Below, in pieces: positions 13-4,196 of a DNA stretch of 4,196 bases (its first letter is position 1; every line of letters starts with the position of its first letter). The notes under the pieces are model-generated. The model saw only the letters and a program-made list of their open reading frames with translations. It was not told where the DNA came from and did no database searches. The position numbers were made by a program, and so were the translations under genes. This DNA is from a virus (Duplodnaviria > Heunggongvirae > Uroviricota > Caudoviricetes). The stretch is taken from IMG/VR virus record IMGVR_UViG_3300029828_000115. The stretch is one strand, 5' to 3'.

Positions 13-34
13 AAAAAACCTTCACTGCGGAAGG
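13..34 (-). terminator. Intrinsic terminator for the small wHTH gene: hairpin CCTTC-N6-GAAGG (19-34) followed on the minus strand by U6 (18-13), overlapping the gene's stop codon
   Basis: Inverted repeat and adjacent A-run read directly on the + strand, giving stem plus U-tract on the minus-strand RNA. The stem is only 5 bp. Confidence 0.45.
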
Positions 35-219
35 CGTCTGTAACAACCGAACTGATAATCTGCCAGACCCGCCATAACAAGCTGGGTCAGTATTAACTGG
101 CAACGTTCGCGTGAAAGGTAAGTATTCTGCGCAATTTCCCCGACGGTCGCCGGTTCGGTGACGCTTAATTCATTAAACACCACTCTGGCAGTTTCGGTCA
201 TATCCTGCTGTTTTAGCAT
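22..219 (-). CDS. Small (65 aa) putative winged-helix DNA-binding protein, MLKQQDMTETARVVFNELS...; the track ORF 22..306 begins at an upstream GTG that I do not favour
   Basis: Open frame with ATG at 219-217 preceded by AGGGA about 7 nt upstream. The core TVGEIAQNTYLSRERCQLILTQLVMAGL has the spacing of an HTH/winged-helix recognition unit, reminiscent of small PapI/FaeA-like regulators. Has its own terminator at the stop. Family assignment is by eye only. Confidence 0.45.
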   Translation of the reverse strand: MLKQQDMTETARVVFNELSVTEPATVGEIAQNTYLSRERCQLILTQLVMAGLADYQFGCYRRLPQ

Positions 220-342
220 GTCTTTTTCCCTTTTCTGGTTAACGTGACATACCAATAACTCTTGTCGAAAAAGCCAGCAAGCTGAAAGACCCGTATTCGC
301 AACCACCAGCGCGTTTAACGTCCTGTGCCGTTTTTAGGGCAC

Positions 343-365
343 AAAAAAACCCGCTCAGTGGCGGG
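343..365 (-). terminator. Strong intrinsic terminator on the minus strand: CCCGC-N6-GCGGG (350-365) followed by U7 (349-343); the same hairpin is followed by ATCTTTT on the + strand, so weakly bidirectional
   Basis: GC-rich 5-bp stem and 7-nt A-run read directly. Sits downstream (minus sense) of the toxin gene and candidate sRNA. Confidence 0.6.
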
Positions 366-387
366 ATCTTTTGATAAAAACGACAAA

Positions 388-408
388 GGCACCATTAAGG
401 TGCCTTTT
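388..408 (+). terminator. Second hairpin GGCACC-ATTAA-GGTGCC followed by TTTT on the + strand (also T-rich on the minus side); possible bidirectional terminator or structural element
   Basis: Perfect 6-bp inverted repeat at 388-393/399-404 with T-run 405-408. No + strand gene upstream in this window to terminate, so its role is uncertain. Confidence 0.35.
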
Positions 409-496
409 ACACAGGGGCAGCAGGCTTGTCATCACCTCATCGCTACTCCTGGCTTCCTGTTCGGAAGTCTCACAAGTCCCATCAGGGTACAGCGAC

Positions 497-525
497 AGTA
501 TCAGCCAACACACTATGTGTGTCAA
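497..525 (-). promoter_or_regulatory. Sigma70-like promoter on the minus strand: -35 TTGACA (525-520), 17-bp spacer, -10 GATACT (502-497)
   Basis: Consensus -35 hexamer and a -10 carrying the critical A2 and T6, at ideal spacing. Points away from the toxin gene toward the hairpin/terminator region. Confidence 0.4.
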
Positions 526-535
526 TATAAATTCA

Positions 536-569
536 TATCGAATTCGATAATCGTTTTCGATTATCGATA
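536..569. repeat. Cluster of overlapping palindromes built from TCGATA/TATCGA half-sites: 14-bp perfect palindrome TATCGAATTCGATA (536-549), 10-bp inverted repeat TCGATAATCG/CGATTATCGA around a TTTT loop (544-567), and TATCGATA (562-569)
   Basis: Read directly from the sequence. The cluster overlaps the last codons and stop (561-563) of the toxin-like CDS. Could be a protein operator array or an mRNA 3' stem-loop. Confidence 0.6.
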
Positions 570-962
570 CAGATAAGCCATCCCTATCCCGTGCAATACC
601 GCCCGTTTAATATTCTCAAACTCATCTTCCGCAATCATAGGAACAATATAATTTCGTCCCTCCCAGGTTCTGGTTTTTATGCGATCCAGTCGGCTCAATG
701 AAACCGTCATCAACATGTCACATTTTACCCAGCAAGTAATATGCTCATTACTAGGTATGGGGTTTTCTGATAACTCATGATGGCAATCTCTGCGAGGGAG
801 CGGTTCAGTAGTGCTTATTGGTACCACTGTTACCAATTGATTGTTGTGCCTGTTTCTGGACACGACCACCACTGGCCTGACCTTGACTATTTCCGGAACA
901 ACCATTCCCCGAAAATCACACATTAAAACAGAACGAACAGACGGCTGATACTTTAATACCAT
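561..962 (-). CDS. MazF/PemK/Kid-family endoribonuclease toxin homolog, 133 aa from ATG at 962-960 (MVLKYQPSVRSVLMCDFRG...)
   Basis: Hallmark blocks in the correct order: VLMCDF (compare MazF IWVDFDP), VRPVVVVS (compare RPAVVLS / TRPVLIVT), LVTVVPISTT (compare LPVVVPVTSG), KCDMLMTVSLSRL (compare RCDQPRTIDMKAR), IVPMIAEDEFENIKRAVL (compare RVPETIMNEVLGRL). The track ORF 561..1040 starts at a GTG upstream; I prefer the in-frame ATG with an AAGAG RBS-like element. Region is visibly more AT-rich than the flanking phage genes. Confidence 0.6.
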   Translation of the reverse strand: MVLKYQPSVRSVLMCDFRGMVVPEIVKVRPVVVVSRNRHNNQLVTVVPISTTEPLPRRDCHHELSENPIPSNEHITCWVKCDMLMTVSLSRLDRIKTRTWEGRNYIVPMIAEDEFENIKRAVLHGIGMAYLYR

Positions 963-1066
963 AAATCTCTTTGCCTGATAATGACGACTTGTGAACTCCA
1001 CTACAAACAAAATGATTCTGCTGAACAGGCAGTTTCGCACTATACATTATAACCTGTTAAGCCAAC

Positions 1067-1089
1067 AAAAAAACCCGCTCGGCGGCGGG
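1067..1089 (-). terminator. tR'-like intrinsic terminator on the minus strand: CCCGC-N7-GCGGG followed by U7 (1073-1067)
   Basis: GC hairpin 1074-1089 and 7-nt A-run 1067-1073 read directly; lies about 50-70 nt downstream of the promoter below. Confidence 0.7.
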
Positions 1090-1143
1090 ATTTGCTTACT
1101 TTGCCATCGAGTACAAAATCGGCAAAATATCAGATTTGCACGA

Positions 1144-1172
1144 AATATATGCCTTTTAATCTACTTTTGCAA
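1144..1172 (-). promoter_or_regulatory. Late promoter (PR'-like) just after the Q gene: -35 TTGCAA (1172-1167), 17-bp spacer, -10 TATATT (1149-1144); predicted start near 1137
   Basis: Near-consensus sigma70 hexamers at optimal spacing on the minus strand. The -35 overlaps the last Q codons. Promoter, short leader and terminator immediately 3' of Q is the canonical lambdoid late-control architecture (established for lambda and phage 82). Confidence 0.6.
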
Positions 1173-3267: not shown

Positions 3268-3546
3268 TTACCTCCAGATGCGTTGCTGGAATGTGCGGGA
3301 CGGACGCGGTGGGCGTTCGGAATAAGGGAGTCTGACGTAGATTATCCAGTGACGATAATCGAGGCTGAGGGCTTTCCTAAACTCATACCCACGTCTGCGG
3401 TAGTTCTGAATCAGCCATTCGGCCTGTTCTTCAGTGCATGGATCATGCTGGAACCAGTCAGATTTGAATGCGTGAGAACGCCGCCCGCGCCTGCTGGCAA
3501 GGACGGCGAGATTATCAGAATTGTGTGATCTGGAATTTTGCGCCAT
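3268..3546 (-). CDS. Hypothetical small prophage protein, 92 aa (MAQNSRSHNSDNL...)
   Basis: ATG at 3546-3544 with good RBS (GGAGA, 6-nt spacer). Stop TAA lies 1 nt from the GTG start of the DUF968 gene, suggesting coupling. No family recognised. Confidence 0.5.
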   Translation of the reverse strand: MAQNSRSHNSDNLAVLASRRGRRSHAFKSDWFQHDPCTEEQAEWLIQNYRRRGYEFRKALSLDYRHWIIYVRLPYSERPPRPSRTFQQRIWR

Positions 3547-3612: not shown

Positions 3613-3876
3613 TCACTCATCTTCAAAAGCAGAAAAACCAGCCTTAAGCCCAGCTTCTTTCAGAGACTGCAATGATGTGACAAATTCATTTTCACGCAAA
3701 ATAAAACCATCCGTCACCAGTCCATCCACAAAGTAAATTAACGCCGCCCCACTCTTCCTTTGTTGAGACTGTAAACATTTAATACGGCAGTGGCTGACAA
3801 TGGAGCCATTCTCAACGCGCACAGTATAGAGGCCATCTTCACTAAAAATTTCAACCAATTCTTCGATTTTCATCAA
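3613..3876 (-). CDS. Small prophage protein, 86-87 aa, possibly Rem-like by position between hok and the DUF968 gene; start is TTG 3876 or ATG 3873
   Basis: Open frame with GGAAGG RBS 6 nt (TTG) or 9 nt (ATG) upstream. Synteny with the Qin order relB-relE-hokD-rem-ydfU as I recall it; sequence identity to Rem not verified. Confidence 0.5.
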   Translation of the reverse strand: MMKIEELVEIFSEDGLYTVRVENGSIVSHCRIKCLQSQQRKSGAALIYFVDGLVTDGFILRENEFVTSLQSLKEAGLKAGFSAFEDE

Positions 3877-4030: not shown

Positions 4031-4055
4031 AAAATAAAAAACCCGCCGAAGCGGG
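4031..4055 (-). terminator. Intrinsic terminator at the end of the hok mRNA: CCCGC-UUCG-GCGGG followed by UUUUUUAUUUU on the minus strand
   Basis: GC stem 4042-4055 with tetraloop and adjacent A-run 4031-4041 on the + strand. Confidence 0.65.
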
Positions 4056-4096
4056 TTAAGTGCGGGTGCGTTGAGGATGCCTGACACATCAGAGGT

Positions 4097-4118
4097 GGCG
4101 AGGGATTTCTCCCTCGCC
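4097..4118 (-). other. Perfect 9-bp stem-loop (GGCGAGGGA-TTTC-TCCCTCGCC) in the hok 3' UTR, starting 9 nt after the stop
   Basis: Inverted repeat read directly. hok-family mRNAs are known to carry structured 3' ends involved in fold-back inhibition and stability. Confidence 0.5.
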
Positions 4119-4126
4119 AGGTCTCT

Positions 4127-4196
4127 TACTCCTCAGGTTCGTAAGCTGTGAAGACAGCGACCTCCGTCTGGCCGGTTCGGATTCGTACCTCGCAGA
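4127..4196 (-). CDS. hokD: Hok-family type I toxin, 3' portion only (start lies beyond the window edge); encodes ...CEVRIRTGQTEVAVFTAYEPEE*
   Basis: Minus-strand translation of 4196..4130 gives CEVRIRTGQTEVAVFTAYEPEE followed by TAA (4129-4127), matching the conserved Hok C-terminus and, as I recall, HokD/RelF specifically. Confidence 0.8.

Follow-up and report, generated by a model that had tools for sequence, protein, structure and literature searches.

A YifN-type MazF/PemK toxin gene and a conserved structured small RNA in the late leader of an Escherichia coli prophage: a candidate type III-like toxin-antitoxin module

Results

Organization of the locus

The DNA examined here is a stretch of 4,196 nucleotides (nt) from a Caudoviricetes virus (IMG/VR record IMGVR_UViG_3300029828_000115), hereafter the window, which covers the late-regulatory region of a lambdoid prophage of Escherichia coli and in which every gene lies on the minus strand. 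Between the gene for the antiterminator Q and the late genes it carries a gene for a 133-amino-acid (aa) protein of the MazF/PemK family, a predicted endoribonuclease toxin, followed by a conserved structured small RNA that is a candidate for the toxin's antitoxin. In the direction of transcription, the genes of the window are the 3' end of a Hok/Gef gene, open reading frames (ORFs) of 87 and 92 aa, a DUF968/HNH protein, RusA, Q, the toxin and a 65-aa winged-helix ORF; in a near-identical genome these are followed farther downstream by a DNA methyltransferase, tRNAs, holins and an endolysin. The toxin gene therefore shares the strand of Q and is preceded by Q, a PR'-like promoter and a terminator; the genes for the methylase, the tRNAs and lysis come after it [Table 1]. 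Toxin and small RNA are contained in one mobile cassette of 724 bp (366-1064) inserted in the late leader and bounded by a 27-nt terminator direct repeat, the two copies of which are 93% identical and 724 nt apart.

Table 1. Features of the toxin-RNA cassette and its surroundings, in window coordinates.
Feature	Positions	Strand	Basis or remark
YifN-type MazF/PemK-fold endoribonuclease toxin (predicted activity), 133 aa	561..962	-	Pfam, alignment, AlphaFold/Foldseek
Conserved structured small RNA, about 115-120 nt, candidate RNA antitoxin	371..494	-	Covariance model R1, 143.6 bits on the window; helices P0-P2b
Predicted sigma-70 promoter of the small RNA, TTGACA-17-GATACT (10/12 consensus matches)	497..525	-	Promoter scan
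Conserved 5' region of the toxin gene (weak promoter and/or 5' untranslated region, ribosome-binding site)	963..1013	-	Enterobacter/Xenorhabdus conservation starts here; left end of the S19-651 deletion
E. coli-specific spacer in the cassette; perfect TATAAT at 1046-1051, no good -35	1014..1066	-	Sequence reading
tR'-like intrinsic terminator (stem 1074-1089 + T7), left copy of the 27-nt repeat	1065..1091	-	Sequence scan
Second intrinsic terminator (stem 350-365 + T7), right copy of the 27-nt repeat	341..367	-	Homology to cassette-free prophages resumes here
Inverted repeat with perfect 9-bp arms (CGATAATCG-N4-CGATTATCG) across the toxin stop codon	545..566	.	Sequence reading; E. coli-specific
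PR'-like late promoter, TTGCAA-17-TATATT, overlapping the end of Q	1144..1172	-	Promoter scan; kept with this Q type in cassette-free prophages; putative function
Q antiterminator gene, 231 aa, PF06323	1156..1851	-	Pfam E=1.9e-94; RefSeq name 'bacteriophage antitermination protein Q'
65-aa winged-helix gene (phrog_331), first conserved late-leader gene	22..219	-	Pfam matches weak, below cut-off

The 133-aa protein has the fold and catalytic positions of MazF

The protein matches PF02452 (PemK_toxin) with E=7e-14 and 52.4 bits against a cut-off of 23.1 bits, and the same family was present in all 112 homologues found. An AlphaFold model computed with 35 homologues as input reached a predicted local distance difference test score (pLDDT) of 92.9, and the top 50 Foldseek matches in the PDB were all MazF/MoxT/YdcE-type toxins (best E 3.6e-7, template modelling score up to 0.82), which identifies the fold as an SH3-like barrel of the MazF/Kid/CcdB type; a single-sequence search of PDB sequences with the protein returned noise only. 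E24, R29 and S50 are invariant in an alignment of 35 diverse homologues, and profile alignment to E. coli MazF places them on E24, R29 and T52 of that toxin. Alignment and modelling together identify a genuine MazF/PemK-family protein with intact catalytic positions, for which RNase activity and toxicity are predicted; the family assignment and the retention of the catalytic Arg and Thr positions had both been proposed in an initial annotation of this DNA made from its letters and ORFs. RefSeq names the ORF 'type II toxin-antitoxin system PemK/MazF family toxin', homologues are labelled 'YifN (PemK superfamily)' by JGI, and yifN of E. coli K-12 is a related pseudogene. A search of NCBIfam gave a weak MazF match only, and PADLOC had no match. 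The Enterobacter and Xenorhabdus toxins are 78% and 71% identical, respectively, to the E. coli copy in the window. Homologue alignment supports the ATG at 962 as the family-wide start; a GTG-extended form of 159 aa was rejected, as the extension is not conserved across the family.

In the conserved region upstream of the gene, the toxin's own candidate -10 box reads TAGTGG in the E. coli copies, against TAAAAT, TAATAT or TAGAAT in Enterobacter and Xenorhabdus prophages (loci L089, L093 and L107; our own reading). Expression of the toxin in E. coli may thus rely to a greater extent on PR' read-through. The inverted repeat over the stop codon lies some 20 nt upstream of the -35 box of the small RNA promoter; its 4-nt loop is flipped in one IMG/VR contig (L117) and half of it is deleted in another locus (L102). 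It could be an operator or a recombination scar.

A structured small RNA with its own predicted promoter follows the toxin gene

The small RNA downstream of the toxin gene was delineated with a covariance model built solely from enterobacterial prophage copies, the 21 distinct ones of which share one fold in a MAFFT/RNAalifold analysis. It has the loop GAUGACAAG and, at its end, a terminal hairpin at 385-407 with the tail CUUUGUCGUUUUU. Variation across phyla is almost absent from this loop, from a 5' segment (CUUGUGAGAC) and from the tail CUUUGUC, GAUAACAAG being one example of a loop variant. In an alignment of 39 sequences, 90% of the cells are paired and changes on both sides are seen in 22 of the 32 pairs. 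Pairing values as high as those observed were reached in none of 500 shuffles, and the covariation score of 0.421 compares with at most 0.106 when the partner columns were slid. For a possible pseudoknot of loop GACAA with tail UUGUC, the columns hardly vary, and the exceptions comprise a single compensatory change and several mismatches.

The variation among the 39 sequences is compensatory and not codon-like. No conserved ORF is present in the small RNA, the AUG of the loop being broken in eight of the 39, and readings of 25 and 56 aa inside it were rejected since their frames are interrupted by indels when E. coli, Enterobacter and Xenorhabdus are compared. A single copy of the RNA is present, and no tandem repeats were found in positions 1-1300 of the window. 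Rfam 15 holds no family that matches the element, here or in 11 diverse loci, the sub-threshold matches in the window being driven by the terminator hairpin; the GenBank phage collection gave no nucleotide match, and a literature search found no description of this RNA or of its pairing with a YifN/MazF-type toxin.

The terminator hairpin (407-385) lies about 100 nt past the predicted promoter of the small RNA, and the same arrangement of promoter and hairpin is found 3' of the Enterobacter and Xenorhabdus toxins. Among E. coli, Enterobacter and Xenorhabdus, the stretch between promoter and hairpin is apparently conserved at least as well as the toxin gene. The -10 hexamer of the best promoter-like site occupies one and the same register at 32 of 39 loci from different phyla, and the promoter often lies inside the 3' coding end of the toxin gene. 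The fixed register of a sigma-70-like promoter argues that the small RNA is transcribed independently. The promoter was also considered as a second, Q-specific PR'; this was rejected, since promoter and RNA come after the toxin whichever of three unrelated Q families precedes it, and do so outside phages as well.

Toxin and small RNA are linked across bacteria

Relatives of the toxin in the YifN clade occur in at least 508 GTDB species genomes, and 80 of these loci were examined. In 77 of the 80, the covariance model detected the small RNA on the same strand as the toxin gene, usually no more than about 100 nt after its stop codon (E 1e-20 to 3e-3). The taxa in which both are found include Pseudomonas, Caulobacteraceae (Caulobacter), Neisseria, Pasteurellaceae, Oxalobacteraceae, Saccharibacteria and Anaerolineales, and most of the 77 linked loci lie outside prophages and are devoid of Q. 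A small Vibrio phage record (~13.5 kb) likewise has a match to the RNA model downstream of a toxin homologue. At most three of the 80 loci have the toxin without the RNA, one of them on a contig that ends too early.

The converse search, started from the RNA, gave a different balance. The toxin lay upstream in 20 of 32 IMG/VR contigs and was missing from 12; in 37 E. coli genomes the respective numbers were 24 and 13; and 21 metagenome contigs, selected for a model-confirmed small RNA and enough upstream sequence, comprised 13 with the toxin, two with a decayed toxin and six with none. The 15-mer scan of metagenome contigs returned mostly chance matches, so that only the 26 of 120 loci confirmed by the covariance model were used. 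This one-sided linkage, in which the RNA alone is common and the toxin alone is rare, is what an antitoxin-toxin pair predicts, since an antitoxin can outlive its toxin and not the reverse.

RNA-only copies in prophages are located inside the PR' leader and have lost their -35 box along with the toxin. Some toxin-less copies (loci L162, L244 and L192; L012, 8221-8356) stand directly after genes that we read, from their translations, as other type II antitoxins (HigA-like antidote, HicB-like); this proximity suggests that cassettes have been exchanged at toxin-antitoxin loci. In E. coli K-12, a weak match to the RNA model (E=0.22) follows the yifN pseudogene (L083, 1365-1460); it keeps the 5' hairpin and the first helix (CCCCUUGAGGGAC...CCCGG-loop-CCGGG) and may be a relic of the partner RNA. 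Just after the toxin-RNA module, an sRNA-Xcc1 element is found in a Pasteurellaceae genome (L010, 4631-4719) and a group II intron in a Saccharibacteria genome (L024, 4611-6423); both neighbours are marks of mobile DNA.

No protein antitoxin accompanies the toxin

The space upstream of the toxin gene (963-1066) has no conserved ORF, in agreement with the initial annotation; the sole ORF there, of 43 aa (916-1047), was rejected as a partner for want of conservation. Clustering of the neighbouring ORFs in the 80 homologous GTDB loci revealed lineage-specific synteny only and no protein family shared across taxa, and in phage loci of toxin homologues Q lies upstream with no small protein partner. 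No MazE/PemI/Kis-like antitoxin was found at the window locus or in the 80 homologous loci. A comparison of homologous prophages had been recommended for finding a conserved partner; the homologous loci yielded no protein and, in 77 of 80, the small RNA instead: the initial annotation had looked upstream for an ORF, and the non-coding partner lay downstream of the toxin.

The 65-aa winged-helix gene was considered as an antitoxin in reverse order and rejected, as it is common without the toxin. When positions 1-1200 were used as query, the usual match among 2,413 matching E. coli records was to 1-365, which holds this gene, and only 20 of 5,426 complete genomes had the full 1-1200. From this distribution, the 65-aa gene is independent of the toxin and not its dedicated partner.

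Alleles of the cassette in E. coli

A separate search found the whole cassette (366-1064) in 24 of 5,426 complete E. coli genomes, in all of which the ORF is intact and the cassette DNA 97.9-99.9% identical; SE11 (NC_011415.1) is a completely sequenced carrier. Nine genomes, including that of strain S19-651, have a toxin-deleted allele consisting of the same insert minus about 509-1013. Just 366-487 is kept in strain E9 and two others; of these, E9 was inspected, and there the remnant follows a different Q. An empty site is represented by prophage ETEC1716, which has the same Q type without the toxin: promoter and terminator are followed directly by the 65-aa gene. The spacer at 1014-1066 is kept in the toxin-deleted S19-651 and is not homologous to the Enterobacter or Xenorhabdus loci. 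The perfect TATAAT that the initial annotation had placed in this spacer, with no good -35, is indeed present (1051-1046).

The Q-controlled late leader

A PR'-like promoter and a tR'-like terminator do precede the toxin gene, as first annotated. Although functional assignment of the two is inferred, it is well founded, because ETEC1716 runs from the same promoter and terminator straight to the 65-aa gene. The RNA between them (1068-1139, minus strand) has a weak isrK-like match (19.5 bits, E 0.48) and would correspond to the late-leader RNAs that end at a terminator in other lambdoid phages. Since the toxin sits behind Q, a PR'-like promoter and a terminator on the late strand, Q-dependent read-through into it is a reasonable supposition. 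The placement recurs: Q genes of three unrelated families (PF06323, PF03589 and PF06530) are each followed by the toxin as the next gene, typically about 190-260 nt and in one contig up to ~665 nt away, and a Mu-like prophage has the toxin behind Mor. Each of the three loci that were inspected for it has a terminator separating Q from the toxin. Between PR' and the late genes of the window there are three terminators in series (1067-1089, 385-407 and 345-365), and Q read-through would therefore transcribe the toxin and the small RNA embedded behind it. The interval between Q and the lysis genes is, however, a general hot spot for cargo, so that placement in the late leader alone is weak evidence; late timing may have been selected for or may simply reflect this hot spot.

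Other features of the window

The right edge of the window cuts a second, unrelated toxin locus, of which the C-terminus of a Hok/Gef type I toxin remains (CEVRIRTGQTEVAVFTAYEPEE*; 4128-4194, minus strand). Just downstream of it, at 4036-4117, there is a sub-threshold isrK-like Rfam match (31 bits) with a terminator at its end. The ORFs of 92 aa (3268-3546) and 87 aa (3613-3876), both on the minus strand, had no match in a Pfam search and fall only into PHROG families without known function (phrog_1212 and phrog_340).

Discussion

A proposed RNA antitoxin for a MazF-family toxin

The reading that we favour, and to which we give a probability of roughly 0.55, is that the cassette encodes a type III-like toxin-antitoxin module in which the RNA would restrain a MazF-family RNase. 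We propose that the RNase is bound directly by the small RNA, with the invariant single-stranded motifs of the latter as the probable contacts, and that the loop GAUGACAAG, which has an ACA inside, could serve as a pseudo-substrate. The RNase would be inactive as long as the small RNA is made continuously from its own, presumably constitutive, sigma-70 promoter, and would be freed upon loss of small RNA synthesis. In a lysogen, toxin transcription would be low, with PR' transcripts ending at 1067-1089, and the small RNA abundant. Once Q is made, the antiterminated polymerase would pass all three terminators and transcribe the toxin as the first late gene. The small RNA, with a promoter of its own, is found beside the toxin at 77 of 80 loci, mostly non-prophage and without Q, so that the module is self-contained; antitermination can then be at most an extra, phage-specific layer of control, and Q read-through probably boosts transcription of the toxin without being its sole restraint.

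Several points weigh against this proposal. The module would differ from every described type III system in that its RNA is single-copy and downstream of the toxin and in that it has no ToxN/CptN/TenpN homologue. The largest covariation count comes from the 39-sequence alignment, which had been fitted to the model; the helices were recovered independently with MAFFT/RNAalifold, over less diversity. The RNA-only copies inside PR' leaders could reflect a role of the RNA that has nothing to do with the toxin, antisense control is possible at Enterobacter-type loci, where the RNA loop is complementary to the 5' untranslated region (UTR) of the toxin (z -4.2), and the fact that yifN of E. coli K-12 is a pseudogene shows that some family members are dispensable.

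Alternative explanations

The initial annotation had considered the toxin an orphan held in check by transcription alone: silent behind tR', it would be expressed on antitermination by Q as a late host shut-off or abortive-infection effector. Two elements of this proposal stand, namely the missing MazE/PemI partner and the position in the late leader, where Q, a PR'-like promoter and a strong terminator precede the toxin and the lysis genes come after it, a placement which is repeated behind three Q families and to which the degenerate -10 candidate of the E. coli toxin (TAGTGG in our reading) may be added. What does not stand is the orphan status itself, as a conserved RNA lies downstream at 371-494; being conserved next to the toxin, it removes the orphan premise as well as a MazE/PemI antitoxin would. 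With an independently promoted RNA behind the toxin in 77 of 80 mostly non-phage loci, there is no reliance on Q elsewhere, and the cargo hot spot deprives the placement of much of its weight; restraint by transcription alone is in our view improbable. We are equally sceptical of type I-like control, in which the small RNA would base-pair with the 5' region of the toxin mRNA and block translation or destabilize the message. Such pairing is suggested by the Enterobacter-type loop GGUGAUGACAA, which shares complementarity of about 11 nt with AUUGUCAUCACC from the 5' UTR of the toxin, the duplex having the z score given above, and by a related UGUCAUC motif upstream of the Neisseria gene. Over 36 loci, however, the energy of the cognate duplex was no better than that of shuffled ones (mean z -0.34, by a crude scoring method), and loops that are invariant across phyla opposite toxin 5' regions that are not represent the reverse of what co-evolving antisense pairs display. 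As complementarity between the RNA and toxin leaders is not general, and as the loops are invariant where the leaders vary, recognition of the RNA by a conserved protein is favoured, which accords with the proposed antitoxin.

It is also conceivable, if unlikely, that the pair is no toxin-antitoxin system at all, the protein being the processing or binding partner of the RNA in a ribonucleoprotein with another function, or the RNA an independent late-leader small RNA, like StxS or IsrK, that merely travels along. The occurrence of the RNA alone inside the PR' leaders of several prophages is in keeping with this possibility, as is its ending in a hairpin and U-rich tail in the manner of Hfq-type small RNAs. 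It sits less well with the invariance of the catalytic MazF residues, with the one-sided linkage, and with the RNA-only copies adjoining other toxin-antitoxin genes, an association typical of toxin-antitoxin cassette turnover. That the cassette is decaying, functionless cargo might be thought from its rarity (whole in 24 of 5,426 complete E. coli genomes), its deletion variants and the K-12 pseudogene, but is at odds with an intact ORF and 97.9-99.9% DNA identity in all 24 carriers and with the clear purifying and compensatory selection acting on protein family and RNA; we regard it as highly improbable.

Implications of an RNA partner

Many MazF/PemK genes are annotated as type II without an adjacent antitoxin, which poses the question of how cells tolerate such orphans. 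If the RNA is the antidote, it would explain a whole orphan clade across many phyla, widen type III beyond repeat-array antitoxins and ToxN-like toxins, and provide a new, well-defined structured RNA with a testable function, the invariant loops of which are probably protein contact sites. More tentatively, and at somewhat less than even odds, we suggest that the 'solitary' YifN clade, with its at least 508 GTDB species genomes, is one half of a widespread, unrecognized class in which a single, non-repetitive, structured and independently transcribed small RNA counters a PF02452 toxin; that lambdoid and Mu-like prophages have repeatedly put this module first in their late operon; and that RNA-only copies in PR' leaders give phages immunity to the same toxin when it is encoded elsewhere. 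For phage biology, the locus would present an RNase-RNA module wired into the Q-controlled late leader, the slot of the Shiga toxin genes. The natural toxin-deleted and RNA-only alleles are ready-made genetic controls, and the conserved RNA partner makes the whole 'solitary YifN/MazF' clade experimentally tractable.

Comparison with known systems

With regard to type II systems (MazEF, PemIK, Kis-Kid), the toxin shares their Pfam family, fold and equivalent catalytic positions; it differs in having no upstream MazE/PemI/Kis gene, in being about 20 residues longer and in belonging to a distinct 'YifN' clade. The stx genes are Q-dependent cargo of the late leader in lambdoid phages, where the PR'-tR' small RNA StxS and, in Gifsy-1, IsrK/AntQ are also found. 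Like these, the cassette is on the late strand, in the interval that runs from Q/PR'/tR' to the lysis genes, with full expression expected after antitermination and with short terminated leader RNAs; it is unlike them in being a self-contained RNase-RNA module that also occurs outside phages and whose Q dependence is inferred. Phage PhiTE encodes pseudo-ToxI, an RNA antitoxin-like sequence that allows escape from ToxIN. The RNA without toxin in the PR' leaders of E9, S19-651 and loci L106/L108 is comparable, except that these RNA-only copies look like deletion derivatives of the full cassette, and a role of theirs against host defence is speculation.

A MazF gene without adjacent MazE has a precedent in MazF-mx of Myxococcus xanthus, a solitary toxin for which MrpC acts as surrogate antitoxin (PMC4803016). 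Both cases combine the missing mazE gene with a non-canonical control factor; the neutralizer of MazF-mx is a distant transcription-factor protein, whereas the candidate here is an adjacent RNA conserved throughout the family. A parallel also exists with type III systems. According to one account of the known systems, their antitoxin is a tandem-repeat array upstream of the toxin, which the toxin processes and with which it forms cyclic complexes (PMC8860590). The RNA described here is, by contrast, single, non-repetitive, made up of several helices, downstream of the toxin and equipped with its own promoter, its direct binding to the toxin being a proposal, and the toxin belongs to PF02452, the sole Pfam family matched, and not to ToxN, CptN or TenpN. 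Type III systems are found on mobile elements and prophages, where terminators set the relative expression of toxin and RNA, and ToxN has a Kid/MazF-like fold. What the cassette has in common with ToxIN, CptIN, TenpIN and AbiQ is the pairing of an endoribonuclease with an adjacent non-coding RNA and no protein antitoxin: an untranslated RNA adjoins an endoribonuclease-type toxin and is conserved together with it.

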